Position numbers and translations under genes: made by a program. Shown here one piece after another: positions 33,333-56,871 of a stretch of DNA of 64,000 nt. The first letter of the stretch is position 1; the number at the start of each line of letters is the position of its first letter. The notes beneath the pieces are model-generated. The model worked only from the letters and a program-made list of their open reading frames with translations, did not search any database and was not told the DNA's origin. The DNA lies in contig CAVXTU010000001.1 of assembly GCA_963764785.1 (NCBI GenBank), forward strand, positions 930,643-994,642, given 5' to 3'. This DNA comes from an uncultured Chloroflexia bacterium (GTDB lineage Bacteria > Chloroflexota > Limnocylindria > Limnocylindrales > CSP1-4).

Positions 33333-33678
33333 GAGTCTGGAGATCGAAACGAACACACCGACATGACGTCGGCTGCTCGGGACGCGAGCGGCCATGCGCC
33401 GACCGGACGGGCCGACGGCCACCTCTCTCCTTCTCTCATCCGGACTATGACCGTCGGCTCCCTGCAAGGGATCCACCGCCACCGTGAGGTGGACGGGTCG
33501 TGGGCTGGCGGCCGGACCCTTGTCCTGAACCACCGACCACCGGTAGGGGATTTCACCCGACCCCGAAGGCGAGGCGTGCTATTGCGATGTTGTGACCTGA
33601 CTATACCAGCGCCGCAGGCCCATTCCTTGGACGCGATTCGTCCTGCTTGCCATCGGCCTATCGGCTACTGCACGTTCC

Positions 33679-36221: not shown

Positions 36222-36911
36222 TCAGGTTCGGCCGCGTGACTCCAGCATGACGACCGCCGTCTCATTGGGGATCGATGAGATGGTGGCCTTGAGGCTGGCC
36301 ACGGGTTTGCGGTCTGACACGCTCATCTCCTTGAGGAACTTGTCAAGGTCCGCCTCTGGCTCGGCCGCGGCGTCGGTGATGGGCAGCGGTATGACCATAC
36401 GGGCGTCGAGTTGGTTCACGAGCTCCGCTGCGTGTGCGGCGCTCAGCTGAGGTCCGATCCCCAGGCAGATGATGTCCACGTGGCCGATCTCCCGGATGGT
36501 GTCCTGGTCGAGTAGATGACCCACCTCACCCAGGTGGGCGGCAAAGATGCCGTCCAGCTCGTACACGAACGCCGTGCTCATGCCCCGGGCTGCTCCCTGC
36601 TCCTGGTCGCGGAAGGTGCGGACACCGGTGACCATGACGTCGTGCACTTCGTATTCGCCCGGAGAGTCGAGCACGAACGCACTCTCGAGACTGGTCGGGA
36701 CCGGAACCCCCAACTGGCGTGACATGACACCCGCCTTCGCCTTGCTTCCCGGGCCATCTGCGACCGCTTCATCAGGCCGTCCATACGAGACGATGTCGGC
36801 GCTGAGGCCACGGCCGGTCGGCCCGGCGATGGACCGGAACGGGTCTGCGGCAACGACCCCCTCACGCCCCTTGAGTCGAACGCAGGTGCCGCCGTACCAA
36901 GTGATCTCCAT
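36222..36911 (-). CDS. MBL-fold metallo-hydrolase (UlaG-like)
   Basis: Start MEITWYGGTCVRL, IICLGIGPQLSAAHAAE. Confidence 0.6.
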   Translation of the reverse strand: MEITWYGGTCVRLKGREGVVAADPFRSIAGPTGRGLSADIVSYGRPDEAVADGPGSKAKAGVMSRQLGVPVPTSLESAFVLDSPGEYEVHDVMVTGVRTFRDQEQGAARGMSTAFVYELDGIFAAHLGEVGHLLDQDTIREIGHVDIICLGIGPQLSAAHAAELVNQLDARMVIPLPITDAAAEPEADLDKFLKEMSVSDRKPVASLKATISSIPNETAVVMLESRGRT

Positions 36912-37133
36912 ACACATGGATGGTGCCACACGCAGGACAAAGAAAAGGAACGAGGGGTGCCTGCCCAATCAGCACCCCTCGTTCCAAGAGGGAGGGAGAG
37001 GGAACTGTGAAGCATGTACTTCGCGGTTCCGTGGTGAGAACAGTAGCCGCGAAGCGTGAAGGCTCCAGACCTCGAACGGTGAAGAAACCCACATTCGCCC
37101 GAACTTTGCGCTTGCTGCACCGCTTGTCCCATA

Positions 37134-38549
37134 GTGTTCTGGCGCAAGGCTGGCAGAATGCGGACTATGGCAATCATCGATGGTCGTGTCCACGACCCAC
37201 GTCGCAAGCGACTGTTCACGCTGGCCCTGTCAGCCCTGCTGCTCGCCGCGTTCGGCGCATCGGCCCCTGTTGTCGCCCAGGATGAGTCGCCGCCGCCCGC
37301 CCCCTCCGCCGCTTCGACGCCCCTGCCCACGGGTTTCACGCAGAAGATGGCGAACAAGATCGCTGCGGTCATCAAGGCGGTACATCCGGTTCGTGGACTT
37401 CCCGCCGCTGACGACGTCACCTATCGGGTCATCGATCCCGCCGAGTTCCTCTCCGAGGTCGATTCCCTCTTCCATGAGCAGTACAGCGACGCATACATGG
37501 TCGCCGAGGATGCGGCGTTCACCAGGCTGGGACTACTGAAGCCAGACGACGACCTCGAGCAGCTCACCCTTGACCTGTACGACAGTCAGGTGCTGGCCTA
37601 CTACGATCCTCGGACCACGACTTTCTCGCTTGTCGGCCCAGTGGACAACATCGGTTCCCTGGAGTCCATCGTGGTGGCGCATGAATACGAGCATGCACTG
37701 CAGGACGCAGCCTGGGGACTAGAGGACATACGGGTGAAGGATCTCGATCGTTCGGATGCCATCCTTGCCCAGCAGGCACTCATCGAGGGTGACGCCACCG
37801 CCGTCATGTATGACTGGGCCGCGCGTGAGTTGAAGCTATCGGACCTTTTGAAGGTCTCGGCCCAAGCGCTGACCAAGCAGGACCAGCGCCAGCTCAACCG
37901 AACGCCTGACATCCTGCAGCGTCAGCTGGAGTTCCCGTACATCGACGGCTACGCCTTCGTGAACGCCATCCGGGGGCGCGGTGACTGGGATGCCGTGAAT
38001 GCGGTTTGGGACGCCCAACCCGTCTCGACCGAACAGATCCTCCATCCCGAGCTCTATCCCGACGAGCTACCGGTGGACATCACCCTCCCTGACGTCGCTG
38101 CCGCTCTGGGACCGGGTTGGGTCACCTCGTATCAGCAGACCCTCGGTGAGATGCAGACGCATGTCTGGGTCGCCGACGGAGGCAAGGCTCGATCGCTATT
38201 TCCCGCGCTACCCGCCATGTTGCCCAACGCTGAGGCCGCCGCCGGTTGGGGCGGCGACCGATTGGTCAGTCTTGACGGTCCAGCCGGTGCCTGGGCTGTG
38301 GTGTGGCAGACCGATTGGGATAGCAAAGCTGACCAGAAGGAATTCTCCAAGGCGGCCCGCGCAGCCATGAAGGACCTACCCGGCGCTCACTCGGCGACGA
38401 ATACGGACATCGCTGGAGGGCTATCCTCTCCGGTACTCGTCATGGTGGCCGATAGCGAAGGGACGCTTGACGCCGTCAATGCGACCCTAAGCCTCGAATT
38501 CCTGACGCACACGTCGCCGACGAGTGAAGCGAGGAGCGGCGGACGATGA
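37134..38549 (+). CDS. Secreted HEXXH-containing protein (putative zincin-like metalloprotease); paralogous to the C-terminal domain of the giant PASTA protein
   Basis: Signal peptide; VVAHEYEHALQD (HEXXH). The C-terminal ~250 aa align to the 38638..48306 C-term (NAEAAAGWGGDRLVSLDGPAGAWAVVWQTDWDS vs ANAAAGWGGDRLVSLDGPDGSWAIVWQTKWDT). Confidence 0.55.
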   Translation: MFWRKAGRMRTMAIIDGRVHDPRRKRLFTLALSALLLAAFGASAPVVAQDESPPPAPSAASTPLPTGFTQKMANKIAAVIKAVHPVRGLPAADDVTYRVIDPAEFLSEVDSLFHEQYSDAYMVAEDAAFTRLGLLKPDDDLEQLTLDLYDSQVLAYYDPRTTTFSLVGPVDNIGSLESIVVAHEYEHALQDAAWGLEDIRVKDLDRSDAILAQQALIEGDATAVMYDWAARELKLSDLLKVSAQALTKQDQRQLNRTPDILQRQLEFPYIDGYAFVNAIRGRGDWDAVNAVWDAQPVSTEQILHPELYPDELPVDITLPDVAAALGPGWVTSYQQTLGEMQTHVWVADGGKARSLFPALPAMLPNAEAAAGWGGDRLVSLDGPAGAWAVVWQTDWDSKADQKEFSKAARAAMKDLPGAHSATNTDIAGGLSSPVLVMVADSEGTLDAVNATLSLEFLTHTSPTSEARSGGR

Positions 38550-38637
38550 AGAAACGGACACTTGTGTCGGGAACGGCCCAGAAGGGTAGGCCGCATCGCT
38601 CGCACGACCGCGCTGAGTCCCGTAAGGTCCGACTGCC

Positions 38638-41600
38638 ATGACTGATGAGAAGCCGGATACCGGCGACCCGACCGAGTCCACTGACCTCTCGCCCGCTCCA
38701 CCAGACCCGCAGACGCCCGACGCTGCCGCGGAGGAAGTGACTGGCGAGCCTGATGCGGACGCGGTCGATCCAGGCTCGGACTCTGTCCCGGAAGGCGCTA
38801 CTGAACCTGACGCTGACACCCCTGCGACGGATTCTGCTGCAGACCTCGATCCCGCTGCTGAGAGTAGTGCCGGGCCGGCCGCCGAAGTAGGTGCCGAGGC
38901 CGATGCCGATGCCGAGACCGATGCCGAGACCGATGCGGATCTCGAGGCCGATGCCGAGACCGATGCGGACCCCGAGGCCGATGCCGACGGTGGTAACGAG
39001 TCGGATGCCGCCCAGTCGATCGAAGCAGCTGATACCGATGTCGCGGCAGTGGCTGGTGCGGGAGTCGCAGGTGCGGCTTGGACCACCACGCCAGTCGCGC
39101 CTGATCCCGAGGCCACCGAAGCAGCGCTGGCAGCCCTGGCGGCCGGGCCTGAAGTCACGCTCGAGCCGCCCGATGGCCCGCCACCACCGCCTCCGCCCGG
39201 CGACGAGCCCCAGGACGAAGGTACGCCCATCCTGCTGGTGGGTGGCATCCTGGTGGGTGCCTTCATCGTCGCGCTTGCCATCGTCCTGATCCTGTTCCGG
39301 CCATTCGACTCGGGTGGGAACGCGATCCCGTCGCCGTCGCCGATCACGACCGAGGCTCCCAGCGCCAGTCCCAGCGCGATCACCTTCGTGGACACGCCCG
39401 AGTTCATCGGCGGGACCCTGGAAGAAGCGGAACTCAAGGCCGGGGACTACGGCCTCGTGGTGCGCGCCAATCCCGTGGAGGACGATAAGGTAAGTCCGAA
39501 CACAGTGATCGACCAGGATCCAGGTCCTGGAGAGTCTGTCGAGGTCGGTACGACCATCGAACTCTCGGTCGCCGTCCCCGTTCCTACGCATCCCGTCCCG
39601 GATGTCGTGAACATGTCCCAGGCAGACGCGATCGACGCGATCGAAGAGGCCGGCCTTGCGGTCGGCGACATCTCGAACGAGACCAGCGACAAGATCGTGG
39701 CCGGCAACGTCATCGACACCGACCCCGCGGTAGCGACCGAACTGCCGCTTGGAAGCAGCATCGATCTGGTCGTCTCCACCGGCCCGGCCCAGGTGGCCGT
39801 GCCCGACCTCGTCGACAGCCCCGAGGCCGACGTGGCCGCGGCCCTCGATGCCGTCGGCCTGGTCGCGGGTGACCGCACCGAGGCCGCCGACGAGAGCATC
39901 GTCGCGGGCAACGTCATCAGCACCGATCCGAGCGCCGCCAGCGAGGTCGACCCCGGTTCGGCCGTCGCCTACGTCGTCTCCACCGGCCCGGCCCAGGTGG
40001 CCGTGCCCGACCTCGTCGACAGCCCCGAGGCCGACGTGGCCGCGGCCCTCGATGCCGTCGGCCTGGTCGCGGGTGACCGCACCGAGGCCGCCGACGAGAG
40101 CATCGTCGCGGGCAACGTCATCAGCACCGATCCGAGCGCCGCCAGCGAGGTCGACCCCGGTTCGGCCGTCGCCTACGTCGTCTCCACCGGCCCGGCCCAG
40201 GTGGCCGTGCCCGACCTCGTCGACAGCCCCGAGGCCGACGTGGCCGCGGCCCTCGATGCCGTCGGCCTGGTCGCGGGTGACCGCACCGAGGCCGCCGACG
40301 AGAGCATCGTCGCGGGCAACGTCATCAGCACCGATCCGAGCGCCGCCAGCGAGGTCGACCCCGGTTCGGCCGTCGCCTACGTCGTCTCCACCGGCCCGGC
40401 CCAGGTGGCCGTGCCCGACCTCGTCGACAGCCCCGAGGCCGACGTGGCCGCGGCCCTCGATGCCGTCGGCCTGGTCGCGGGTGACCGCACCGAGGCCGCC
40501 GACGAGAGCATCGTCGCGGGCAACGTCATCAGCACCGATCCGAGCGCCGCCAGCGAGGTCGACCCCGGTTCGGCCGTCGCCTACGTCGTCTCCACCGGCC
40601 CGGCCCAGGTGGCCGTGCCCGACCTCGTCGACAGCCCCGAGGCCGACGTGGCCGCGGCCCTCGATGCCGTCGGCCTGGTCGCGGGTGACCGCACCGAGGC
40701 CGCCGACGAGAGCATCGTCGCGGGCAACGTCATCAGCACCGATCCGAGCGCCGCCAGCGAGGTCGACCCCGGTTCGGCCGTCGCCTACGTCGTCTCCACC
40801 GGCCCGGCCCAGGTGGCCGTGCCCGACCTCGTCGACAGCCCCGAGGCCGACGTGGCCGCGGCCCTCGATGCCGTCGGCCTGGTCGCGGGTGACCGCACCG
40901 AGGCCGCCGACGAGAGCATCGTCGCGGGCAACGTCATCAGCACCGATCCGAGCGCCGCCAGCGAGGTCGACCCCGGTTCGGCCGTCGCCTACGTCGTCTC
41001 CACCGGCCCGGCCCAGGTGGCCGTGCCCGACCTCGTCGACAGCCCCGAGGCCGACGTGGCCGCGGCCCTCGATGCCGTCGGCCTGGTCGCGGGTGACCGC
41101 ACCGAGGCCGCCGACGAGAGCATCGTCGCGGGCAACGTCATCAGCACCGATCCGAGCGCCGCCAGCGAGGTCGACCCCGGTTCGGCCGTCGCCTACGTCG
41201 TCTCCACCGGCCCGGCCCAGGTGGCCGTGCCCGACCTCGTCGACAGCCCCGAGGCCGACGTGGCCGCGGCCCTCGATGCCGTCGGCCTGGTCGCGGGTGA
41301 CCGCACCGAGGCCGCCGACGAGAGCATCGTCGCGGGCAACGTCATCAGCACCGATCCGAGCGCCGCCAGCGAGGTCGACCCCGGTTCGGCCGTCGCCTAC
41401 GTCGTCTCCACCGGCCCGGCCCAGGTGGCCGTGCCCGACCTCGTCGACAGCCCCGAGGCCGACGTGGCCGCGGCCCTCGATGCCGTCGGCCTGGTCGCGG
41501 GTGACCGCACCGAGGCCGCCGACGAGAGCATCGTCGCGGGCAACGTCATCAGCACCGATCCGAGCGCCGCCAGCGAGGTCGACCCCGGTTCGGCCGTCGC

Positions 41601-44600
41601 CTACGTCGTCTCCACCGGCCCGGCCCAGGTGGCCGTGCCCGACCTCGTCGACAGCCCCGAGGCCGACGTGGCCGCGGCCCTCGATGCCGTCGGCCTGGTC
41701 GCGGGTGACCGCACCGAGGCCGCCGACGAGAGCATCGTCGCGGGCAACGTCATCAGCACCGATCCGAGCGCCGCCAGCGAGGTCGACCCCGGTTCGGCCG
41801 TCGCCTACGTCGTCTCCACCGGCCCGGCCCAGGTGGCCGTGCCCGACCTCGTCGACAGCCCCGAGGCCGACGTGGCCGCGGCCCTCGATGCCGTCGGCCT
41901 GGTCGCGGGTGACCGCACCGAGGCCGCCGACGAGAGCATCGTCGCGGGCAACGTCATCAGCACCGATCCGAGCGCCGCCAGCGAGGTCGACCCCGGTTCG
42001 GCCGTCGCCTACGTCGTCTCCACCGGCCCGGCCCAGGTGGCCGTGCCCGACCTCGTCGACAGCCCCGAGGCCGACGTGGCCGCGGCCCTCGATGCCGTCG
42101 GCCTGGTCGCGGGTGACCGCACCGAGGCCGCCGACGAGAGCATCGTCGCGGGCAACGTCATCAGCACCGATCCGAGCGCCGCCAGCGAGGTCGACCCCGG
42201 TTCGGCCGTCGCCTACGTCGTCTCCACCGGCCCGGCCCAGGTGGCCGTGCCCGACCTCGTCGACAGCCCCGAGGCCGACGTGGCCGCGGCCCTCGATGCC
42301 GTCGGCCTGGTCGCGGGTGACCGCACCGAGGCCGCCGACGAGAGCATCGTCGCGGGCAACGTCATCAGCACCGATCCGAGCGCCGCCAGCGAGGTCGACC
42401 CCGGTTCGGCCGTCGCCTACGTCGTCTCCACCGGCCCGGCCCAGGTGGCCGTGCCCGACCTCGTCGACAGCCCCGAGGCCGACGTGGCCGCGGCCCTCGA
42501 TGCCGTCGGCCTGGTCGCGGGTGACCGCACCGAGGCCGCCGACGAGAGCATCGTCGCGGGCAACGTCATCAGCACCGATCCGAGCGCCGCCAGCGAGGTC
42601 GACCCCGGTTCGGCCGTCGCCTACGTCGTCTCCACCGGCCCGGCCCAGGTGGCCGTGCCCGACCTCGTCGACAGCCCCGAGGCCGACGTGGCCGCGGCCC
42701 TCGATGCCGTCGGCCTGGTCGCGGGTGACCGCACCGAGGCCGCCGACGAGAGCATCGTCGCGGGCAACGTCATCAGCACCGATCCGAGCGCCGCCAGCGA
42801 GGTCGACCCCGGTTCGGCCGTCGCCTACGTCGTCTCCACCGGCCCGGCCCAGGTGGCCGTGCCCGACCTCGTCGACAGCCCCGAGGCCGACGTGGCCGCG
42901 GCCCTCGATGCCGTCGGCCTGGTCGCGGGTGACCGCACCGAGGCCGCCGACGAGAGCATCGTCGCGGGCAACGTCATCAGCACCGATCCGAGCGCCGCCA
43001 GCGAGGTCGACCCCGGTTCGGCCGTCGCCTACGTCGTCTCCACCGGCCCGGCCCAGGTGGCCGTGCCCGACCTCGTCGACAGCCCCGAGGCCGACGTGGC
43101 CGCGGCCCTCGATGCCGTCGGCCTGGTCGCGGGTGACCGCACCGAGGCCGCCGACGAGAGCATCGTCGCGGGCAACGTCATCAGCACCGATCCGAGCGCC
43201 GCCAGCGAGGTCGACCCCGGTTCGGCCGTCGCCTACGTCGTCTCCACCGGCCCGGCCCAGGTGGCCGTGCCCGACCTCGTCGACAGCCCCGAGGCCGACG
43301 TGGCCGCGGCCCTCGATGCCGTCGGCCTGGTCGCGGGTGACCGCACCGAGGCCGCCGACGAGAGCATCGTCGCGGGCAACGTCATCAGCACCGATCCGAG
43401 CGCCGCCAGCGAGGTCGACCCCGGTTCGGCCGTCGCCTACGTCGTCTCCACCGGCCCGGCCCAGGTGGCCGTGCCCGACCTCGTCGACAGCCCCGAGGCC
43501 GACGTGGCCGCGGCCCTCGATGCCGTCGGCCTGGTCGCGGGTGACCGCACCGAGGCCGCCGACGAGAGCATCGTCGCGGGCAACGTCATCAGCACCGATC
43601 CGAGCGCCGCCAGCGAGGTCGACCCCGGTTCGGCCGTCGCCTACGTCGTCTCCACCGGCCCGGCCCAGGTGGCCGTGCCCGACCTCGTCGACAGCCCCGA
43701 GGCCGACGTGGCCGCGGCCCTCGATGCCGTCGGCCTGGTCGCGGGTGACCGCACCGAGGCCGCCGACGAGAGCATCGTCGCGGGCAACGTCATCAGCACC
43801 GATCCGAGCGCCGCCAGCGAGGTCGACCCCGGTTCGGCCGTCGCCTACGTCGTCTCCACCGGCCCGGCCCAGGTGGCCGTGCCCGACCTCGTCGACAGCC
43901 CCGAGGCCGACGTGGCCGCGGCCCTCGATGCCGTCGGCCTGGTCGCGGGTGACCGCACCGAGGCCGCCGACGAGAGCATCGTCGCGGGCAACGTCATCAG
44001 CACCGATCCGAGCGCCGCCAGCGAGGTCGACCCCGGTTCGGCCGTCGCCTACGTCGTCTCCACCGGCCCGGCCCAGGTGGCCGTGCCCGACCTCGTCGAC
44101 AGCCCCGAGGCCGACGTGGCCGCGGCCCTCGATGCCGTCGGCCTGGTCGCGGGTGACCGCACCGAGGCCGCCGACGAGAGCATCGTCGCGGGCAACGTCA
44201 TCAGCACCGATCCGAGCGCCGCCAGCGAGGTCGACCCCGGTTCGGCCGTCGCCTACGTCGTCTCCACCGGCCCGGCCCAGGTGGAGACACCTGACGTGCG
44301 CGGCATGTCACTCGAGGACGCACAGGCCGAAGCGGAGCTTTCTCGCCTCATCATGCAGACCACCGATGTCGAGACGAATGATGTCCCACCCGACACGATC
44401 GTTTCGCAGGATCCGGTCGGTGGAACACTCGTTGACGTCGGTTCGACCATCGTCGTCTCCGTTGCTGTGGCCATTCCTCCTGTCGCGGTGCCCGACGTTC
44501 GAAATCTCGCCGAGACGGACGCGATCGGTGCCATCCAATCCGCCGGTCTCAGCGTGGAACAGGTCGACGAACGTACCAATGCCACGGTCCCGGCTGGCGA

Positions 44601-47600
44601 GGCGGTCAGGACCGAGCCTGCGGCAGGCGAGATGCTCGAGGTCGGCTCATCGGTCGTCCTGGTCATGAGCAAGGGTCCCAAGCAGGTCGAAGTCCCAGAT
44701 ATCACGGGACTTTCGGAGGACGACGCGATCGGCGCCCTCCAGGGCGCCGAGTTGACTGCGGGCGAGGCCACGCAGCAGTTCAGCGACGCCGTAGCGGCAG
44801 GTGACGTCATCAGCTCCGATCCGGCGGCCGGCGCCACCGTCGACGCCGCCAGCACCGTCGACTATGTCGTCAGCCAGGGGGTCGAGCAGGTCGAGGTCCC
44901 CGATCTTTCCGGCCCCGCGGCCGACGCAGATCAGACTCTCATCGATGCCGGGCTCGTCGGGAGCAGCAGTGCCGACTTCAGCGGCAGCGTGCCCGTGGGT
45001 GAAGTCATCAGCCAGACTCCTGCCGCCGGCGACATCGTCGACATCGGTTCCTCCGTCGACTATGTCGTCAGCCAGGGCGTCGAACAGGTCAACGTTCCCG
45101 ATCTTTCCGGCCCCGCGGCCGACGCAGATCAGACTCTCATCGATGCCGGGCTCGTCGGGAGCAGCACTGCCGACTTCAGTGAAACCGTGCCTGATGGTGA
45201 CGTCATCAGCCAGGACCCCGCAGCCGGCGAGCCGGTCGACATCGGGTCCACGGTCGACTACGTGGTCAGCCAGGGACCCACGCCGATCGTCACGGTCCCG
45301 AACGTCCGCGATGTGCCTCAAGGCGATGCGGTCGCCTCCATCGAGGCCGAGGGCCTGGTGGTTGGTGAGACCGTCGAACAGTTCCATGAAAAGGTCGCAG
45401 CCGGCAACGCCATCAAGACCGATCCAGCCGCTGACTCCGAGGTCCCCATCGGATCGGCGGTTACGTTGTACGTCTCTAGTGGTCCGGCCACGGTCACCAT
45501 CCCCGAGGTCAAGGACACCCCTGCGGCCGATGCCCAGGCCACGCTCGAGGCCGAGGGCCTCGTGGTCAGCACCGAGGAACGCACCAACAGCAAGATCGCC
45601 GCGGGCAACGCGGTCAAGACCGATCCCGCCGCCGGCACCGACGTCGAGGCCGGTGCCACGGTCAGCCTCATCGTCAGCAAGGGCCCCAAGCCTGCCACGG
45701 TCCCCGACATCGTCGGTCTCCCCAGGGGCCAGGCCACCTCGGCCATCACCGATGCCAAGCTGAGCGTCGGCGCCGAGACCGTCGTGGCTGACCCGTCACC
45801 CAAGAACACCGTGCTGTCCCAGGATCCCCCGGCCGCTGCCGAGGTCCCCGAGGGCACCGCGGTCGATTACAGCATCAGCTCCGGTCCGGCCACGGTCACC
45901 ATCCCCGAGGTCAAGGACACCCCTGCGGCCGATGCCCAGGCCACGCTCGAGGCCGAGGGCCTCGTGGTCAGCACCGAGGAACGCACCAACAGCAAGATCG
46001 CCGCGGGCAACGCGGTCAAGACCGATCCCGCCGCCGGCACCGACGTCGAGGCCGGTGCCACGGTCAGCCTCATCGTCAGCAAGGGCCCCAAGCCTGCCAC
46101 GGTCCCCGACATCGTCGGTCTCCCCAGGGGCCAGGCCACCTCGGCCATCACCGATGCCAAGCTGAGCGTCGGCGCCGAGACCGTCGTGGCTGACCCGTCA
46201 CCCAAGAACACCGTGCTGTCCCAGGATCCCCCGGCCGCTGCCGAGGTCCCCGAGGGCACCGCGGTCGATTACAGCATCAGCTCCGGTCCGGCCACGGTCA
46301 CCATCCCCGAGGTCAAGGACACCCCTGCGGCCGATGCCCAGGCCACGCTCGAGGCCGAGGGCCTCGTGGTCAGCACCGAGGAACGCACCAACAGCAAGAT
46401 CGCCGCGGGCAACGCGGTCAAGACCGATCCCGCCGCCGGCACCGACGTCGAGGCCGGTGCCACGGTCAGCCTCATCGTCAGCAAGGGCCCCAAGCCTGCC
46501 ACGGTCCCCGACATCGTCGGTCTCCCCAGGGGCCAGGCCACCTCGGCCATCACCGATGCCAAGCTGAGCGTCGGCGCCGAGACCGTCGTGGCTGACCCGT
46601 CACCCAAGAACACCGTGCTGTCCCAGGATCCCCCGGCCGCTGCCGAGGTCCCCGAGGGCACCGCGGTCGATTACAGCATCAGCTCCGGTCCGGCCACGGT
46701 CACCATCCCCGAGGTCAAGGACACCCCTGCGGCCGATGCCCAGGCCACGCTCGAGGCCGAGGGCCTCGTGGTCAGCACCGAGGAACGCACCAACAGCAAG
46801 ATCGCCGCGGGCAACGCGGTCAAGACCGATCCCGCCGCCGGCACCGACGTCGAGGCCGGTGCCACGGTCAGCCTCATCGTCAGCAAGGGCCCCAAGCCTG
46901 CCACGGTCCCCGACATCGTCGGCATGCCCGAGGCTGATGCCATCAGCGCACTCCAGGCAGCCAACCTGGTGCCCGGCACTCCCACCGAGGTGATCGATGA
47001 GAGCGTCCCGGCCGGTCAGGTGATCGCTCAGGATCCGAATAGCGGAACCTCAGTACCGCAAGGGACGACTGTCGACTACACCATCTCCGCTGGAGCATCC
47101 GTCGAACCTCGCGGCGCGGGTGGTTCGCTCGACAACCCGACCCTCAGTGCCCAGCTCGATGAGGTCGCTTCCACGGTTCCGGACATCCGCCAGCTAGCGC
47201 TTGGGAACACGCCGTATGACGGTGCCAACCGGGCGGCGCAGGAGTCGCTGCTGTCAGAACGCTCGGCGGTCATGTATGACCCGTCGACTCTGGGCCAGGA
47301 ACAGGAAGCGCTGGCTCGCATGGGCCTGCTCGGTTCCGGTGATGATCTTGCGGCTCTGCTCGACGAGCTCTATGGCCAGAGCCTGCCGATCGCTTACATC
47401 GAGCAACGTGGCCGCCAGTCGATCCTTCAATCCATCGACAAATTCAGTGTCGCCCAACGGGCGGAAGCGGCACGGGAATTCGGTCGCGCCGCCACATCCC
47501 AGGCATTCGGGAGTGACGCGATCGGTGTTGGCGATGCCACCAACGGTGACCAGGCATTGGCCGGCGTCGCGCTCCAGCAGGGCGACGGCACCGTGGTCAT

Positions 47601-48306
47601 GCTGGACTGGTCAGCGGCGAACGTGGGCTCCAACAACCAGGCCAAGGTGGACGACGTCGTGGTGCCCGGCAGCGACAGCATCCTGTCATCGATGCCACAG
47701 CTGCTCCAGCGGGAGTACACCTTCCCGTTCCTTGAGGGTCGCAATTTTGTCGATCAGGTCAAGGGTGGGGACTGGGCGAATGTCGACGACGCCTGGAGCC
47801 AGCCACCGGAATCGACCGAGCAGGTCATGCACCCGAACAAGTACCGAAGCGATCGACCGACCTCGATCGACCTGGATGGCGTCGCCGGCCAGCTGGGTGG
47901 TGGCTGGTCGGAGCGATGGCAGCAGACCATGGGCGAGCTCCGCATCGGCGTCTGGCTGGCTGACGGTCAGCCCGGATCCCAGCAAGGTCCCAAGGCACCG
48001 GTGAAGCTGCCCAAGGCTAACGCGGCAGCTGGATGGGGAGGCGACCGACTTGTCAGCCTCGATGGCCCCGACGGCTCATGGGCCATCGTGTGGCAGACCA
48101 AGTGGGACACATCCGAAGACGTCGGCCAGTTCATCAAGGCTGCCAACGCCGCGGTCGCGGATCTATCGGGTGCACACGCTGTCGTACAGGCCGACGTCTC
48201 TGGCGGGCTGTCGGATCCGGCGCTGGTGCTCCTGGCCAGTGACGATGCCTCGCTCTCGCAGGTCGCTGCTGCACTGGGTGTGGATGTCGGCGCCGGCGGC
48301 TCGTAG
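38638..48306 (+). CDS. Giant (3222 aa) single-pass membrane protein: acidic low-complexity N-terminus, one TM helix, ~38-40 tandem PASTA domains, C-terminal domain homologous to the 37134 protein
   Basis: TM PILLVGGILVGAFIVALAIVLILF. The repeated 68-aa unit VPDLVDSPEADVAAALDAVGLVAGDRTEAADESIVAGNVISTDPSAASEVDPGSAVAYVVSTGPAQ fits the PASTA consensus (vPdvvG...A...L...Gl.v....e.s...gkVisq.P.aG..v..gs.v.l.vS.Gp). The single frame is uninterrupted. Confidence 0.8.
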   Translation: MTDEKPDTGDPTESTDLSPAPPDPQTPDAAAEEVTGEPDADAVDPGSDSVPEGATEPDADTPATDSAADLDPAAESSAGPAAEVGAEADADAETDAETDADLEADAETDADPEADADGGNESDAAQSIEAADTDVAAVAGAGVAGAAWTTTPVAPDPEATEAALAALAAGPEVTLEPPDGPPPPPPPGDEPQDEGTPILLVGGILVGAFIVALAIVLILFRPFDSGGNAIPSPSPITTEAPSASPSAITFVDTPEFIGGTLEEAELKAGDYGLVVRANPVEDDKVSPNTVIDQDPGPGESVEVGTTIELSVAVPVPTHPVPDVVNMSQADAIDAIEEAGLAVGDISNETSDKIVAGNVIDTDPAVATELPLGSSIDLVVSTGPAQVAVPDLVDSPEADVAAALDAVGLVAGDRTEAADESIVAGNVISTDPSAASEVDPGSAVAYVVSTGPAQVAVPDLVDSPEADVAAALDAVGLVAGDRTEAADESIVAGNVISTDPSAASEVDPGSAVAYVVSTGPAQVAVPDLVDSPEADVAAALDAVGLVAGDRTEAADESIVAGNVISTDPSAASEVDPGSAVAYVVSTGPAQVAVPDLVDSPEADVAAALDAVGLVAGDRTEAADESIVAGNVISTDPSAASEVDPGSAVAYVVSTGPAQVAVPDLVDSPEADVAAALDAVGLVAGDRTEAADESIVAGNVISTDPSAASEVDPGSAVAYVVSTGPAQVAVPDLVDSPEADVAAALDAVGLVAGDRTEAADESIVAGNVISTDPSAASEVDPGSAVAYVVSTGPAQVAVPDLVDSPEADVAAALDAVGLVAGDRTEAADESIVAGNVISTDPSAASEVDPGSAVAYVVSTGPAQVAVPDLVDSPEADVAAALDAVGLVAGDRTEAADESIVAGNVISTDPSAASEVDPGSAVAYVVSTGPAQVAVPDLVDSPEADVAAALDAVGLVAGDRTEAADESIVAGNVISTDPSAASEVDPGSAVAYVVSTGPAQVAVPDLVDSPEADVAAALDAVGLVAGDRTEAADESIVAGNVISTDPSAASEVDPGSAVAYVVSTGPAQVAVPDLVDSPEADVAAALDAVGLVAGDRTEAADESIVAGNVISTDPSAASEVDPGSAVAYVVSTGPAQVAVPDLVDSPEADVAAALDAVGLVAGDRTEAADESIVAGNVISTDPSAASEVDPGSAVAYVVSTGPAQVAVPDLVDSPEADVAAALDAVGLVAGDRTEAADESIVAGNVISTDPSAASEVDPGSAVAYVVSTGPAQVAVPDLVDSPEADVAAALDAVGLVAGDRTEAADESIVAGNVISTDPSAASEVDPGSAVAYVVSTGPAQVAVPDLVDSPEADVAAALDAVGLVAGDRTEAADESIVAGNVISTDPSAASEVDPGSAVAYVVSTGPAQVAVPDLVDSPEADVAAALDAVGLVAGDRTEAADESIVAGNVISTDPSAASEVDPGSAVAYVVSTGPAQVAVPDLVDSPEADVAAALDAVGLVAGDRTEAADESIVAGNVISTDPSAASEVDPGSAVAYVVSTGPAQVAVPDLVDSPEADVAAALDAVGLVAGDRTEAADESIVAGNVISTDPSAASEVDPGSAVAYVVSTGPAQVAVPDLVDSPEADVAAALDAVGLVAGDRTEAADESIVAGNVISTDPSAASEVDPGSAVAYVVSTGPAQVAVPDLVDSPEADVAAALDAVGLVAGDRTEAADESIVAGNVISTDPSAASEVDPGSAVAYVVSTGPAQVAVPDLVDSPEADVAAALDAVGLVAGDRTEAADESIVAGNVISTDPSAASEVDPGSAVAYVVSTGPAQVAVPDLVDSPEADVAAALDAVGLVAGDRTEAADESIVAGNVISTDPSAASEVDPGSAVAYVVSTGPAQVETPDVRGMSLEDAQAEAELSRLIMQTTDVETNDVPPDTIVSQDPVGGTLVDVGSTIVVSVAVAIPPVAVPDVRNLAETDAIGAIQSAGLSVEQVDERTNATVPAGEAVRTEPAAGEMLEVGSSVVLVMSKGPKQVEVPDITGLSEDDAIGALQGAELTAGEATQQFSDAVAAGDVISSDPAAGATVDAASTVDYVVSQGVEQVEVPDLSGPAADADQTLIDAGLVGSSSADFSGSVPVGEVISQTPAAGDIVDIGSSVDYVVSQGVEQVNVPDLSGPAADADQTLIDAGLVGSSTADFSETVPDGDVISQDPAAGEPVDIGSTVDYVVSQGPTPIVTVPNVRDVPQGDAVASIEAEGLVVGETVEQFHEKVAAGNAIKTDPAADSEVPIGSAVTLYVSSGPATVTIPEVKDTPAADAQATLEAEGLVVSTEERTNSKIAAGNAVKTDPAAGTDVEAGATVSLIVSKGPKPATVPDIVGLPRGQATSAITDAKLSVGAETVVADPSPKNTVLSQDPPAAAEVPEGTAVDYSISSGPATVTIPEVKDTPAADAQATLEAEGLVVSTEERTNSKIAAGNAVKTDPAAGTDVEAGATVSLIVSKGPKPATVPDIVGLPRGQATSAITDAKLSVGAETVVADPSPKNTVLSQDPPAAAEVPEGTAVDYSISSGPATVTIPEVKDTPAADAQATLEAEGLVVSTEERTNSKIAAGNAVKTDPAAGTDVEAGATVSLIVSKGPKPATVPDIVGLPRGQATSAITDAKLSVGAETVVADPSPKNTVLSQDPPAAAEVPEGTAVDYSISSGPATVTIPEVKDTPAADAQATLEAEGLVVSTEERTNSKIAAGNAVKTDPAAGTDVEAGATVSLIVSKGPKPATVPDIVGMPEADAISALQAANLVPGTPTEVIDESVPAGQVIAQDPNSGTSVPQGTTVDYTISAGASVEPRGAGGSLDNPTLSAQLDEVASTVPDIRQLALGNTPYDGANRAAQESLLSERSAVMYDPSTLGQEQEALARMGLLGSGDDLAALLDELYGQSLPIAYIEQRGRQSILQSIDKFSVAQRAEAAREFGRAATSQAFGSDAIGVGDATNGDQALAGVALQQGDGTVVMLDWSAANVGSNNQAKVDDVVVPGSDSILSSMPQLLQREYTFPFLEGRNFVDQVKGGDWANVDDAWSQPPESTEQVMHPNKYRSDRPTSIDLDGVAGQLGGGWSERWQQTMGELRIGVWLADGQPGSQQGPKAPVKLPKANAAAGWGGDRLVSLDGPDGSWAIVWQTKWDTSEDVGQFIKAANAAVADLSGAHAVVQADVSGGLSDPALVLLASDDASLSQVAAALGVDVGAGGS
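39777..44265 (+). repeat. 22 head-to-tail copies of a 204-bp unit (one PASTA domain each), apparently 100% identical at nucleotide level
   Basis: The junction 20-mer caccggcccggcccaggtgg recurs at exactly 39777+204n for n=0..22 (checked position by position). Confidence 0.85.
45481..46920 (+). repeat. ~3.6 copies of a 402-bp unit (two PASTA domains per unit), near-identical
   Basis: tccggtccggccacggtcaccatccccgaggtcaaggac recurs at 45481, 45883, 46285 and 46687; the protein unit is 134 aa. Confidence 0.8.
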
Positions 48307-48329: not shown

Positions 48330-50024
48330 TTACATCGACTCAGGGGCCGAGATCCCGAGCAATGCCAGAGCGTTTCGGAGGGTCGATCGTGTCACTGCCA
48401 CCAGCGCGAGGCGGCTGGCACTCGTAGTCGGATCGTCCGGGTCGATGACGCGGCGGTCGCGATAGTAGGCATGGAAGGTGGTGGCCAGCTCCATGGCGTA
48501 GGTGGTCACACCTTGTGTCTCCTCGGAGTGGGCGGCATCCTCCACGACTTCTGGCAATCGCAGGACCTCGCGGGCCAGTCCCGCTGCGACGTCGTCGCCG
48601 TCGAGTGCACCCGCGAAGCTCGCTGCGGGCATCAGCCCCGACACCTCGGCCTTGGCCAGGATGGAGCTGATTCGAGCGTGCGCATACTGCACGTAATACA
48701 CCGGGTTCTCAGACGACTGCTTGCGGGCAAGCTCGATATCCACATCGATCGGCGAGCTGGCGCCGCGTGATGCGAATGACCAGCGTGCCCCGTCCACCCC
48801 GACCTCTTCGAGCAGCTCATCAAGCGTCAGGAATTCCCCCGAGCGTTTGCTCATGGGGATCTCTTTGCCGTCGCGGATGAAGCGCACCCACGCGACCATC
48901 AGCATCTCGACCGCCTCCTGGTCGAAGCCCATGGCCTGAGCGGCATTGCGAACGCGGGCCACGGTGCCGTGGTGGTCGGCCCCCCACACATAGATGAGCT
49001 TGTCGTACCCGCGACTGAACTTCTCGGCGACGTACCCGATATCGGACGCGAAGTAGGTCGGCTCGCCCGTTGACCGGTAGATGACGCGGTCCTTGTCGTC
49101 ACCGAACGTCGTAGAGCGAAACCACGTCGCGTCCTCATGCTCGAAGATATGGCCGCCCGCACGCAGCTTGTCCACGCCTCGGCTCACCCACCCCTCATCG
49201 TGGAGACTGGCTTCGCTCTTCCAGATATCGAAGTGAACGCCGAGGCGTTCCAGGCTGGCTTCGATCCCATCGCGGATGCGCGCACCAGCCCACTCGCCGA
49301 CCACACGGTCGCGGTCGGCTCCCGGGGCGCTGGCGACGTCCCAGACCTCGGCCGGCATGTCGGCAACCAGATCATCGACATATTCGCCGCGGTAAGCCTC
49401 CTCCGGCAGGTCCTCGCCGAGCTTCCGCGCGGCCACTGAGCTGCCCAGGATGCGCACCTGGCGCCCCGAGTCGTTGAAGTAGTACTCCCGTGTGACGCGG
49501 TGCCCGCCACCCTCGAGAACTCGGCACAGGAGATCGCCCACGAAGGCTCCACGCGCGTTGCCGACCGTCAGCGGACCAGTCGGATTGGCCGACACGAATT
49601 CGACGTTCACATGGAGCGGGTCTTCAGGCGTGACTTGACCGAAGTCACTGCCAGCAGCTCGCGCCTCGTCGAGGATACCTTCGAGCCAAGTGGGCGAGAG
49701 GCGCATATTGAGAAAGCCCGGCGGAGCGACGCTGACGTCCGAGAGCGTCGTTCCAGCCGACACCGCCTGCAGCGATGTCGCGAGTGCTTCCGCGATCTGC
49801 AGTGGTGATCGCCGCATCGGGCGGGCCAGCTTCATGGCCAGGTTCGTTGCCACGTCGCCGTGATCCGGATTCCCCGGTCGCTCCACTTCGATCTTGGGGC
49901 GATCGACCGCATCGACTTGCGGAACCGAACCTTCTCGTGTCGCCTCTTCCCATGCGTCCTGGATGGTCGATCGCACTCGGGACCGGACCGAGAGTACCGC
50001 CGGAGCCTCGTGGTCGAGGGTCAC
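48330..50024 (-). CDS. argS: Arginine--tRNA ligase
   Basis: Class I HIGH context PNPTGPLTVGNARGAFVGD and the KMSKS-like MSKRSG motif. Confidence 0.9.
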   Translation of the reverse strand: MTLDHEAPAVLSVRSRVRSTIQDAWEEATREGSVPQVDAVDRPKIEVERPGNPDHGDVATNLAMKLARPMRRSPLQIAEALATSLQAVSAGTTLSDVSVAPPGFLNMRLSPTWLEGILDEARAAGSDFGQVTPEDPLHVNVEFVSANPTGPLTVGNARGAFVGDLLCRVLEGGGHRVTREYYFNDSGRQVRILGSSVAARKLGEDLPEEAYRGEYVDDLVADMPAEVWDVASAPGADRDRVVGEWAGARIRDGIEASLERLGVHFDIWKSEASLHDEGWVSRGVDKLRAGGHIFEHEDATWFRSTTFGDDKDRVIYRSTGEPTYFASDIGYVAEKFSRGYDKLIYVWGADHHGTVARVRNAAQAMGFDQEAVEMLMVAWVRFIRDGKEIPMSKRSGEFLTLDELLEEVGVDGARWSFASRGASSPIDVDIELARKQSSENPVYYVQYAHARISSILAKAEVSGLMPAASFAGALDGDDVAAGLAREVLRLPEVVEDAAHSEETQGVTTYAMELATTFHAYYRDRRVIDPDDPTTSASRLALVAVTRSTLRNALALLGISAPESM

Positions 50025-50829: not shown

Positions 50830-51747
50830 CTATGTGCTAGCCATCGTCCCGTTCGCCAGTCTGACCGCGACGCCGGCCGCTTCGGTGATGCGATCCGGTA
50901 GCACCACGATACCGGCTTCGTGCGCATCCGCCCAGTGTGCATGCTTGCCGCCGACAGCAAGGACCGGGCTATGGCCAAGGCCCCGCAGCGCATGCGCGAC
51001 TGCGAGTGCAGCGGTCTGGTCCTCGCGCTGAACGACGGCGATGATGGCGACACGCGCACGGTTCTGCTCGATGACGTGAACCCAGCTGTTGACCGGTACG
51101 TCAGGGCCCAGATACAGCACGCCCACGCCCTGGCGGCGCACCGCCACTGAGAATGCCAGGGCACCCAATTCGTGCCGCGCCTTCGGCGGAAGGCCCACCA
51201 CCACGAGTGGTTCGCGCACCGCACCGGCAGCCTCGTAGAGGGCCGACAAGCGGCGGTGTACTGCCGCGCTCGCGGCATGCTCGGCGGCCACGTCGAGCTC
51301 TCCCGCGATCCATGCCTGGCCAAGCGCCACGAGAGCGGGCATCAACAGGTCGTCGACGATGGCTTCGAAACTGCCCTGGGCGAAGATCTCGTCGAGCGCC
51401 GCCCCGGTCGCCGCGATGTCCATGGCCTTGGCGGCTTCGGTGAAGCGGCCGATCAGCTCGGCTTGCCGTGCGTGTGCGGCGTCACCGCTCAGCGGCACCG
51501 AAGTGAGGTCAGGCGTGGGCGCGAGTTCCACCTCTCCGGCGAGTACGGCGCGACTGGCTTCGCTCGCAGTCCAGCCCGACTCGGTCAGTTCCCGGACACG
51601 GACAAGGGTCGCGATGGCGTCGTCGTCGTAGAGCCGGTAGCCCGACGGGGTTCGCTGCGGACTGACGACGCCGTAGCGCCGCTCCCACGCGCGGATCAGG
51701 GGAACGCTGACGCCGGACCGGATGGAGGCCTGCTTAATGCTGTACAT
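50830..51747 (-). CDS. litR: MerR-family regulator with C-terminal cobalamin-binding domain (LitR/CarH-type light-responsive regulator); probable start MYSIKQ at 51747
   Basis: N-term MYSIKQASIRSGVSVPLIRAWERRYGVVSP (MerR HTH). The C-term LVVVGLPPKARHELGALAFSVAVRRQGVGVLYLG...AIIAVV...LAVGG is a B12-binding Rossmann-like domain carrying the cobalamin His-ligand (DxHxxG-like) segment PKARHELGA. Confidence 0.7.
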   Translation of the reverse strand: MYSIKQASIRSGVSVPLIRAWERRYGVVSPQRTPSGYRLYDDDAIATLVRVRELTESGWTASEASRAVLAGEVELAPTPDLTSVPLSGDAAHARQAELIGRFTEAAKAMDIAATGAALDEIFAQGSFEAIVDDLLMPALVALGQAWIAGELDVAAEHAASAAVHRRLSALYEAAGAVREPLVVVGLPPKARHELGALAFSVAVRRQGVGVLYLGPDVPVNSWVHVIEQNRARVAIIAVVQREDQTAALAVAHALRGLGHSPVLAVGGKHAHWADAHEAGIVVLPDRITEAAGVAVRLANGTMAST

Positions 51748-51850
51748 CGTTTGTGCAATATAGCACGGCTTCGTTCCGTGACAAACACTTGACAATCATT
51801 GTACATATGCCCTATCCTCCGGGCATCAGGTACTACAAAGCCTGTACATA
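51739..51850. promoter_or_regulatory. Divergent promoter region with TGTACA-containing direct repeats (candidate LitR/CarH operator)
   Basis: TGTACA at 51740, 51800 and 51844, and ttgacaatcat-tgtacatatgc at 11-bp register; it lies between litR (-) and the DUF4397 genes (+). Confidence 0.5.
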
Positions 51851-52012
51851 GGACGAGTGAATGAGAGGAGAGTCGAACGAATGACCCATCGGTGGCCCGC
51901 TTAGGGACACACAACGCGGGGCGCAGAGCGCCTCATCCAGCTACACGGGGACCCTTGGGCGCCTCGACGTACCTACCAACCCCACATCCCTCCCGAAAGG
52001 ACACCACGCTTC

Positions 52013-52639
52013 ATGCGCAAGAACAAGGTTCAGATCCTCGCCACGACGGCTGCTCTCGCCGCCCTCATGGCCATCCCTGTCGCGACGACCGCTCAGGACG
52101 AGTCCATGGCTCCGACCGACGAGAACGCGATGGTGCGCGTCGGCCACTTCAGCCCTGACGCACCCGCCGTCGACATCTACGCCAACGGTGCCATCCTCGC
52201 GGGCCTCGAGGGCGTCGAGTTCGGCACACTCTCCGGTTACATCGAAGTGCCTGCGGACACCTACTCGATCGCGGTCGTGGTCGCCGGTCAGGACCCGGCT
52301 GACGCCACCGTGATCGGCCCCGCGGACATCCCTCTCGAGGCTGGTTCGAAGTCCACCATCGCCGCGACCGGTTTCGTCGCTGACATCGCTCCGGTCATCC
52401 TGAACGACAACGTCGACCTCACGGAGGGCCAGGCCCAGGTGCGCATCGTGCACTTCAGCCCGGACGCCCCTGCCGTCGACGTGGCGCCTGATGGCGCTGA
52501 CGCCCTCCTGACCGACCTGGCCTTCCCGAACGACACCGGCTATGTCGCGCTTGACGCTGGTGAATACGATCTCGAGGTCCGTGTCGCGGGTACCGAGGAC
52601 GTCGCCATCCAGCTGGACTCCCCTCGCGCTCGACGGTGA
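52013..52639 (+). CDS. DUF4397 secreted repeat protein, copy 1 of 3; C-terminal part frameshifted (1-nt insertion near 52615, ctggactcccc vs ctggatcccc in copies 2/3)
   Basis: Signal peptide MRKNKVQILATTAALAALMA; repeated VRVGHFSPDAPAVDIYANG / VRIVHFSPDAPAVDVAPDG motifs (DUF4397). The alternate frame 52542..52766 encodes the expected C-terminus. Confidence 0.6.
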   Translation: MRKNKVQILATTAALAALMAIPVATTAQDESMAPTDENAMVRVGHFSPDAPAVDIYANGAILAGLEGVEFGTLSGYIEVPADTYSIAVVVAGQDPADATVIGPADIPLEAGSKSTIAATGFVADIAPVILNDNVDLTEGQAQVRIVHFSPDAPAVDVAPDGADALLTDLAFPNDTGYVALDAGEYDLEVRVAGTEDVAIQLDSPRARR

Positions 52640-52802
52640 TACCGCCTACAGCGTCTTCGCCATCGGCTCGCTCGCCGACGGCACACTCACCGCTCTGCCG
52701 GTCGTCGATGCGACCGCCATCATGGGCGACGAGATGGCCGCTGAGTCCCCTGAGGCCAGCGAATAGCCAAGCATCCAACCCCCTTGATCCTGCCTGGTGG
52801 TC

Positions 52803-52831
52803 CGGTTTTGCCGGACCGCCAGGCTCCTTCA
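52803..52831 (+). terminator. Stem-loop cctggtggtccggttttgccggaccgccagg after copy 1 (repeated after copy 2 at ~53666..53694)
   Basis: Perfect 12-bp inverted repeat with a tttt loop. Confidence 0.45.
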
Positions 52832-52855
52832 TACCAATAGGGAACACACGACTCA

Positions 52856-53629: not shown

Positions 53630-53717
53630 CCAAGCATCCAACCCCCTTGATCCTGCCTGGTGGTCCGGTTTTGCCGGACCGCCAGGCTCCTTCATACCAA
53701 TAGGGAACACACGACTC

Positions 53718-56795: not shown

Positions 56796-56871
56796 TTGTG
56801 GAGGCGGCAACAGTTCGTCGGCTGTGATCGACTGGTCGTGCTCGGGACGACGGGTTTGTGTCAAGACGCCA

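Follow-up and report, generated by a model that had tools for sequence, protein, structure and literature searches.

Several described envelope systems bear on the locus reported here. The LytM factors EnvC, NlpD, ActS and DipM have lost their zinc ligands, are maintained by selection and regulate active cell-wall hydrolases by binding (PMC10336132, PMC8416486). Periscope Proteins, SasG, Rib, Sgo_0707 and CdrA among them, combine high repeat DNA identity with changes in repeat copy number (Whelan et al. 2021; PMC8201768). In known PASTA proteins, the PASTA domain is extracytoplasmic, has a single transmembrane anchor and binds muropeptides or lipid II (PMC3145798, PMC6428115); PknB has four PASTA domains (PMC3145798). 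Hvo_1808 has been reported only as a Haloferax lipoprotein and a model substrate for lipobox processing (PMC2945643). Here, we analyze two adjacent genes in a 64,000-nucleotide stretch of DNA from an uncultured Chloroflexia bacterium (GenBank assembly GCA_963764785.1, contig CAVXTU010000001.1, positions 930,643 to 994,642 of the forward strand), hereafter the window. One encodes a predicted secreted, zincin-like metallopeptidase of the DUF8575 family. The other encodes a giant membrane protein that carries, beyond a long array of PASTA domains, a paralog of the first protein from which the predicted zinc site has been removed.

Two paralogs, one without the predicted catalytic site

The smaller gene (37134-38549, + strand) is an open reading frame (ORF) of 471 aa, counted from its first GTG, and its description as a free DUF8575 paralog and putative secreted metallopeptidase draws on the ORF, a family tag and an AlphaFold2 (AF2) model. 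After a gap of 88 bp, the giant gene follows on the same strand (38638-48306, +) and encodes a predicted single-pass membrane protein of 3,222 aa, with intact orthologous ORFs in relatives. A sequence-only reading of the window had described the small protein and the C-terminus of the giant as paralogs, and formal pairwise alignment bears this out: BLASTP finds 141/351 identities (40%; 251 bits, E=2e-82) in a homologous core of ~350-420 aa, with all of the shared segments quoted in that reading in register (GDATAV/GDGTVV, WGGDRLVSLDGP and VWQT.WD). A tblastn search of the whole window for relatives of the small protein returned only itself and positions 47242-48288. Both proteins are assigned to DUF8575 (PF26686) through precomputed tags on orthologs. 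The free paralog has 2,072 homologs; the PF26686/DUF8575 tag is found on its 97%-identical cluster P0001 and on each of the 120 best homologs, and fused-clade orthologs at 55-73% identity carry PF03793 together with PF26686.

DUF8575 is large and its motifs are well conserved. A profile search of 1.84 billion representatives yields 16,218 clusters (50% identity clusters) at E<=1e-3. HExxH, a downstream Glu (E218, in EGDAT) and a Tyr (Y269) are almost invariant across the family; HExxH occurs in 120/120 close homologs, in every distant full-length homolog and in 146 of the 147 best diverse representatives. The free protein has all family motifs, namely HExxHALQD, EGDAT, FPY..G..FV, STEQILHP, GWGGDR and WD. 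In the C-terminal domain of the giant (47104-48303, +; ~400 aa), the last three are intact, but the first three have changes at the residues predicted to be catalytic. HEYEH in the small protein (H183, E184 and H187, aa 183-187; 37680-37694, +) lies opposite REFGR in the giant (aa 2946-2950; 47473-47487, +), just as the sequence-only reading had it, with the two His replaced by R2946 and R2950 and the Glu kept as E2947. Likewise, EGDAT (37785-37799, +), holding the predicted third zinc ligand E218, lies opposite QGDGT (47578-47592, +; E218 to Q2981, A221 to G2984). FPYIDG (37932-37949, +) contains Y269, a candidate catalytic Tyr that is Tyr in 96% of free members, and is matched by FPFLEG (47722-47739, +; Y269 to F3031).

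Is this loss peculiar to the window? The catalytic motif is gone in 37/37 PASTA-fused relatives and in 20/20 genomic loci, where the fused copy reads RE..R or RE..Q, and all free copies with covered sequence have H-E-H plus E. We compared the 37 PASTA-fused sequences with 23 free ones at 46 positions, those with >=90% conservation among free-clade members. The fused clade retains 39 of the 46, including STEQILHP, GWGGDR, WD, E300, H304, E339, D375 and D396. The seven changed positions are H183R, H187R/Q, L189A, Q190x, E218Q, A221G and Y269F, with frequencies among the 37 of 100% for H183R, 92% for H187R, 81% for E218Q and 86% for Y269F; E184 is retained in 95%. E218 is 100% conserved in the free clade; HExxH aside, it is the sole conserved acidic residue that the dead clade has lost. 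Within that clade the residue at the H187 site covaries with the residue at the E218 site (R with Q in 11 loci, Q with E in 6 loci, few exceptions); the pattern follows phylogeny and is suggestive of two side chains that are neighbors at the former metal site, with E218 as third ligand. The seven changes thus amount to a natural experiment that marks H183, H187, E218 and Y269 as probable active-site residues.

The dead domain is also maintained. When the window is compared with three other genomes, the ratio of nonsynonymous to synonymous substitution rates (dN/dS) comes to 0.15-0.31 in the dead domain and to 0.14-0.26 in the free copy, with dS near saturation; by this measure the dead domain is under purifying selection, like the free copy. 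Because of these values, we regard it as a maintained pseudo-enzyme and no decaying remnant. A pseudogene-like relic was considered for the C-terminal domain and is ruled out by dN/dS and the 39 retained positions. The AF2 model of the domain has a predicted local distance difference test score (pLDDT) of 96.2, and its order of secondary-structure elements matches that of the small protein. Site loss, purifying selection and a predicted fold kept at pLDDT 96 together mark a pseudoenzyme, and judged on its sequence the head is a selected, non-catalytic pseudo-peptidase. The contrast between altered and retained positions suggests that the conserved rest of the domain serves binding, not catalysis. 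Of the earlier claim that an active enzyme stands beside a dead homolog, the paralogy and the site loss therefore hold, while peptidase activity of the small protein is predicted from its sequence.

Conservation and origin of the gene pair

Both neighbors of the pair are on the - strand: a Lactamase_B_3 gene upstream (36222-36968) and the arginyl-tRNA synthetase gene (ArgRS; 48330-50024) downstream. Related loci were collected as L001-L005, plus L009-L023 from 15 species-level genomes in a scan of GTDB representatives, all Chloroflexota labeled Limnocylindrales or "uncultured Chloroflexia". The order Lactamase_B_3(-), free DUF8575(+), PASTA giant(+), ArgRS(-) is found in L001-L005 and, where the flank reaches, in L009-L023. 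A free copy is upstream in 17 of the 20 loci; among them are L009 and L017, where PASTA repeats fill the whole of the fetched upstream sequence and the free copy is past its end. The remaining loci, L013, L019 and L020, are short contigs whose upstream end is no more than a few hundred bases from the dead domain. The two genes stay on the same strand at an intergenic distance of 88-140 bp in genomes whose proteins have diverged to 55-60% identity, and the two copies diverge equally (71 vs 73% and 60 vs 60% identity). Between the genes, a scan for promoters and terminators turned up no terminator-like site and nothing else useful.

A single DUF8575 gene with a lipobox and HExxH fills the slot between Lactamase_B_3 and ArgRS in L006 and L008, two outgroup loci that have no giant gene. 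Since distant relatives have one lipoprotein in the same slot, the simplest history, as read from these sequences, is tandem duplication of one lipoprotein enzyme gene followed by a division of labor. One copy would have lost the lipid anchor and kept the active site; the other would have gained a transmembrane helix and a PASTA array and lost the active site. The locus would thus present a clear case of post-duplication division of labor, in which an anchored enzyme gave rise to a soluble enzyme and an anchored dead copy.

The free paralog and its probable relationship to zincins

The true start of the small protein is probably ATG 37158 or 37167, because orthologs begin at MAIIDG. From there a hydrophobic stretch and a conserved cleavage motif predict a signal peptide (37158-37277, +) with a signal peptidase I site at VVA48↓Q49. 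The motif A-x-A↓Q(D/E) is conserved among Limnocylindrales orthologs. The free paralog has no lipobox cysteine, and only 3 of 120 close homologs have a lipobox-like string; lipoboxes are present in many distant DUF8575 homologs.

The AF2 model of the small protein (pLDDT 89, predicted template modeling score 0.83) has HEYEH on helix 175-194, which follows strands 96-100, 155-158 and 163-167. The sequence-only reading had proposed looking for a third zinc ligand downstream, and a candidate is at hand in the nearly invariant E218, which lies 31 residues beyond H187 in the next long helix of the model (207-232). As modeled, the layout of HExxH and the E218 helix is a gluzincin (clan MA type) arrangement. 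Foldseek against the Protein Data Bank (PDB) gave the small-protein model one significant match, 3cmn (E=1.3e-4, prob 1.0, TM-score 0.33/0.49), a Chloroflexus aurantiacus "putative hydrolase with a novel fold". The 3cmn fragment retrieves only proteins of PF10103 (Zincin_2, formerly DUF2342), which are annotated "zinc-dependent metalloprotease". In the model, HExxH thus sits in a helix behind a small beta-sheet, a context in line with the zincin-like motif of the earlier reading.

Profile comparison is consistent with this match. An hhalign comparison of DUF8575 with an alignment of the Zincin_2 fragment is in register over 103 columns, with weak statistics (E=0.0024, prob 12%), and pairs EGDAT with EGYSNH, FPY..G..FV with QY..GE.FV, and VW..P with VW.GP. 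The motif order HExxH ... D..A..L.EG ... Y..G..FV ... VW..P is common to both families, E218 aligning with the invariant EG of Zincin_2, and the sub-threshold matches of family members are almost all zincins (Zn_peptidase_2, DUF6782, M78/IrrE, M13, SprT and M76). A Pfam scan of the small protein gave only a sub-threshold Zn_peptidase_2 match (E=0.015), PDB sequence searches found no significant match, whether run with the single protein or the profile (best IrrE, E=0.12, and 3cmn, E=0.15), and the PF10103 profile matched none of 46 family members at E<=1. A literature search for 3cmn with zincin returned nothing. DUF8575 is at best a remote relative of Zincin_2, and the zincin assignment is a prediction based on motif conservation, predicted secondary structure and one structural match. 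Its motifs and signal peptide make a zinc metallopeptidase that works outside the membrane the most likely identity of the small protein.

DUF8575 is also related to the archaeal Hvo_1808 lipoproteins. The NCBIfam model NF038145 ("Hvo_1808 family surface protein") matches the free protein with 150.5 bits (E=8.5e-44) and the fused domain with 84.3 bits (E=1e-23); neither reaches the 200-bit equivalog cut-off, so both are homologous to the model family and no equivalogs. The alpha/beta subdomain that bears GWGGDR and WD lies C-terminally in both paralogs (aa ~330-450 of the small protein, window ~38120-38480, and aa ~3090-3215 of the giant). It has weak Foldseek matches to the PknH extracellular sensor domain and to Mycobacterium tuberculosis TiME (prob 0.6-0.77, E ~0.15-0.2), and three family members have sub-threshold DUF3558 matches.

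Other members of the family show further domain arrangements. Five proteins (P0218, P0236, P0250, P0268 and P0317) contain two complete tandem DUF8575 domains, each with HExxH, which suggests that the domain often works in pairs. P0235 (1,042 aa, outside the window) combines a Ser/Thr-kinase C-lobe fragment, a transmembrane helix and two DUF8575 domains, both without HExxH (the motif positions read TYYVF and QIVYW). This protein may be a separate, independent instance of dead DUF8575 acting as an extracytoplasmic kinase sensor, and its two dead domains imply that dead DUF8575 can serve as an extracytoplasmic module.

Predicted anchor and PASTA stalk of the giant protein

The giant protein begins with an acidic, low-complexity region (aa 1-195, net charge -54; 38638-39222, +) that is presumed cytoplasmic and contains a 12/18/30-bp tandem repeat at 38892-38987. 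A predicted transmembrane helix follows, ILLVGGILVGAFIVALAIVLILF (aa 198-220; 39229-39297, +). Across L014, L015 and L017 this helix, (I/V)LLVGGILVGAFIVALAIVLILF, hardly varies, and the C-terminal domains there share only ~60% identity. By analogy with the usual location of PASTA and DUF8575 domains, we infer an N-in/C-out topology. The outer part would then begin with a stalk of 38 tandem PASTA domains of 66-68 aa each (aa 253-2822, net charge -360; 39394-47103, +), with the dead domain C-terminal to it, in agreement with the earlier placement of that domain at the tip of a PASTA stalk. Pfam PASTA (PF03793) matches the first three units with E=1e-33 and the last unit with E=2.6e-16. In Foldseek, the last unit superposes on PASTA of PknB (3ouv, TM-score 0.84, root-mean-square deviation 1.2) and also matches PASTA of PrkC and of penicillin-binding proteins (PBPs). 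At roughly 3 nm per PASTA domain, we estimate that the extended stalk would measure ~100 nm.

The stalk includes 22 units that are identical at the DNA level. Tandem Repeats Finder detects 22.1 copies of a 204-bp PASTA-coding unit at 39769-44284 (+) and 3.6 copies of a 402-bp double-PASTA unit at 45481-46922 (+), both with 100% identity; together with a 198/202-bp unit in 2.4 copies, the three repeat classes of the window (204 bp, 198/202 bp and ~400 bp) have identities of 100%, 85% and 100%. The same classes number 9, 15 and 4.5 copies in L001 (3388-10224; 99% identity) and 6.1, 9.6 and 3.6 copies in L002 (5719-10224; 91-98% identity), the comparison being between species-level genomes. Identical arrays of varying copy number point to ongoing intragenic recombination or concerted evolution, as far as sequence comparison can tell. 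PASTA regions of 4.5-9.5 kb are found upstream of the dead domain wherever the flank of a locus is long enough. The 40-44 kb stretch of the window has a GC content of up to 75%, compared with ~65% elsewhere.

Could an ORF of this size be an assembly artefact? This was considered and ruled out by the PASTA regions just described and because three other species genomes have intact ORFs of comparable size, the uninterrupted orthologs in L014, L015 and L017 having 3,231 aa, 2,935 aa and at least 3,744 aa, respectively. In the remaining loci the giant ORF is broken by frameshifts typical of long-read metagenome-assembled genomes.

How might the two proteins act together?

Sequence and synteny show that a predicted metallopeptidase domain has a conserved copy without catalytic function, which lies distally on a PASTA array of variable length and is genetically coupled to an intact secreted copy. 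We think it somewhat more probable than the contrary that the locus is a conserved two-gene, Limnocylindrales-type module that arose by tandem duplication and pairs a soluble enzyme with a cooperating, stalk-borne pseudo-peptidase. Gene 1 would make a Sec-secreted, signal-peptidase-I-processed DUF8575 protein with a full predicted gluzincin-type site (H183-E184-x-x-H187, E218 and Y269), which would bind zinc and act as a peptidase. Gene 2 would make an N-terminally anchored membrane protein whose 38 PASTA domains form a very acidic rod on the outside, with a length that may change by recombination between DNA-identical repeats. At the far end, the head would keep the fold with its three predicted metal ligands and Tyr replaced (H to R, H to R/Q, E to Q and Y to F). 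It may bind in its cleft what the family binds, leave it uncut, and do so at a membrane distance set by the stalk. In cooperation with the soluble active paralog, the head would either hold or present the ligand or dock the enzyme. A bolder version, which strikes us as doubtful, makes the dead head a receptor that captures either the active paralog or its substrate for the soluble catalyst, with repeat recombination setting the distance at which proteolysis occurs. If true, the pair would be an enzyme-plus-pseudoenzyme display system and the first functional context for DUF8575.

Several observations weigh against a cooperating enzyme and anchored pseudo-peptidase. The transmembrane helix of the giant is acidic on its N-side and has Arg on its C-side, which violates the positive-inside rule for an N-in orientation, and the repeat count rests on a single assembly and may be wrong. 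The link to zincins consists of one Foldseek match (TM-score 0.33/0.49) and weak profile statistics, and 3cmn, the nearest solved relative, is annotated no further than "putative hydrolase". The dead-domain model retrieved only PASTA structures and weak TiME and PknH matches in Foldseek, and no 3cmn. E184 is kept, so a non-canonical activity of the head is conceivable. Finally, a literature search for DUF8575 returned no paper, and no member has a demonstrated activity.

What else could the dead head do? It might mainly bind the secreted active paralog as an enzyme-pseudoenzyme heterodimer that tethers the peptidase at a set distance, a protein anchor having replaced the lipid anchor of the ancestral enzyme. 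The outgroup slot with its single lipoprotein, from which the active copy has lost the lipobox while the dead copy has gained a transmembrane helix and stalk, fits such docking, as do the strictly conserved adjacency of the two genes, their equal divergence, and the recurrent tandem double-DUF8575 proteins, which suggest that two domains often act together. Equal rates are, however, expected for any two genes of the same genomes, and the retained cleft residues favor ligand binding over a new protein interface. The net charges of the free DUF8575 domain and the dead domain (-32 and -25) are both strongly acidic, with no obvious charge complementarity, and the charge check is uninformative. We consider docking as the main role unlikely, although the loss of the free copy's own anchor makes it attractive. 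It is also unlikely, in our judgment, that the head is the adhesive or ligand-binding end of a fibrillar adhesin-like protein with no functional tie to the enzyme and that its adjacency to the enzyme is a relic of duplication. The anchor, identical-repeat stalk and distal domain do recall Periscope Proteins and fibrillar adhesins (PMC8201768, PMC9210967), and P0235 uses dead DUF8575 domains without an adjacent stalk. A mere relic is hard to square with a pair that stays adjacent on the same strand, 88-140 bp apart, despite divergence to 55-60% identity, with no terminator-like site between the genes; together with the simultaneous loss of the lipobox from the active copy, this suggests that there is a reason for keeping the pair together.

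Two further readings question the enzyme or the ligand. DUF8575 as a whole might be a metal- or ligand-binding envelope protein in which HExxH is non-catalytic, so that the "loss" in the fused copy would only shift ligand specificity; Hvo_1808 is known just as a lipoprotein model substrate (PMC2945643), and the statistical support for zincin homology is modest. Against this, HExxH with its general-base Glu, the downstream Glu and the Tyr are conserved in >99% of a family of ~16,000 clusters, and the motif is modeled on the secondary structure expected of a zincin, a signature that would indicate catalysis beyond binding alone; we hold a purely binding family to be quite improbable. As a decoy or sink, the head would titrate an inhibitor, toxin, phage receptor-binding protein or host factor aimed at the active enzyme. 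A decoy was one possibility raised in the sequence-only reading, beside a substrate-binding module, and both are compatible with the evidence. With 39 of 46 conserved positions retained it is a close mimic of the active paralog, and it is held far from the membrane on a long stalk of variable length. Yet a dN/dS of 0.15-0.3 gives no sign of diversifying selection, unlike an arms-race surface, and the neighbors are housekeeping genes (ArgRS, FTCD and an ABC transporter), with no inhibitor or phage gene linked to the locus. A decoy therefore seems very improbable, and a cooperating pair of soluble enzyme and stalk-borne pseudo-peptidase is the reading we retain.

Neighboring genes and other features of the window

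Downstream of ArgRS, a block at 50830-55061 contains a metallo-beta-lactamase-fold gene, a MerR/B12-binding regulator and DUF4397 proteins. Its gene order is constant across the related loci L001-L005, and relatives add a fasciclin-domain gene; the DUF4397 and fasciclin genes encode further uncharacterized envelope proteins beside the two-gene module. On the other side of the pair, an FMN (flavin mononucleotide) riboswitch lies at 33424-33574 on the - strand (Rfam RF00050, 83 bits, E=1.8e-17). Downstream of it is an ABC (ATP-binding cassette) transporter operon with an ATPase (32514-33533), a permease (31696-32517) and an NMT1/THI5-like binding protein (30662-31669). The ATPase ORF as listed mechanically overlaps the riboswitch at its start and must truly begin further downstream.

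A 1,142-aa ORF with AAA_22 and BTAD domains, an AfsR/SARP-like regulator (18211-21639, -), sits in the lowest-GC stretch of the window (58-62% vs ~65%) and may be horizontally acquired. An Rfam match to the small RNA ASdes at 56407-56474 (+) scores 40.3 bits against a gathering score of 40. It is antisense to a 419-aa ORF (55863-57122, -) and may be a chance or borderline match.

Comparison with known systems

By analogy, the LytM factors come closest in mechanism. The logic is the same, a dead envelope metallopeptidase-fold domain working with an active enzyme, and the analogy is one of mechanism only: LytM factors have an M23/LAS fold and are not homologous to DUF8575, their partners are non-paralogous enzymes such as amidases, and they have no long repeat stalks. 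Neither of the two proteins matches Peptidase_M23 in Pfam or NCBIfam. If the two proteins described here cooperate, enzyme-pseudoenzyme regulation of the LytM type would extend to a new fold in abundant uncultured soil Chloroflexota.

Members of the Hvo_1808 family and DUF8575 are exported, in many cases as lipoproteins; in the free copy here, a predicted signal peptidase I site takes the place of a lipobox, and the fused copy is without HExxH and is borne by a PASTA array. Most Zincin_2 proteins are cytoplasmic and annotated as F420-associated, and they are uncharacterized themselves, and compared with them DUF8575 has an extra C-terminal alpha/beta subdomain with GWGGDR. DUF8575 is a very large family of exported proteins of no known function, and the locus may inform on both its active site and its binding role.

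The stalk shares with Periscope Proteins its folded tandem domains of very high DNA identity, with a repeat number that varies among relatives. Surface anchoring and a distal functional domain, with which the transmembrane helix and the domain order here are consistent, would be a further likeness. In SasG, Rib and Sgo_0707, the distal domain is N-terminal, whereas here the predicted anchor is N-terminal and the distal domain C-terminal, and the giant differs further in its pseudo-peptidase head and its uncultured soil Chloroflexota host. PASTA as a stalk domain is absent from the main text of PMC8201768, and we found no description of PASTA as a Periscope-type stalk domain (38 units) or of a pseudo-peptidase as a distal head. 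Compared with the PASTA proteins PknB, PrkC, StkP, PBP2x and PonA2, the giant is without a kinase or transpeptidase domain, has 38 units versus the four of PknB, and has a 195-aa acidic low-complexity tail as its N-terminal part. The locus is thus built from known principles, a pseudoenzyme with an active paralog, a periscope-type stalk and PASTA domains, put together in an uncharacterized protein family and in an uncultured lineage.

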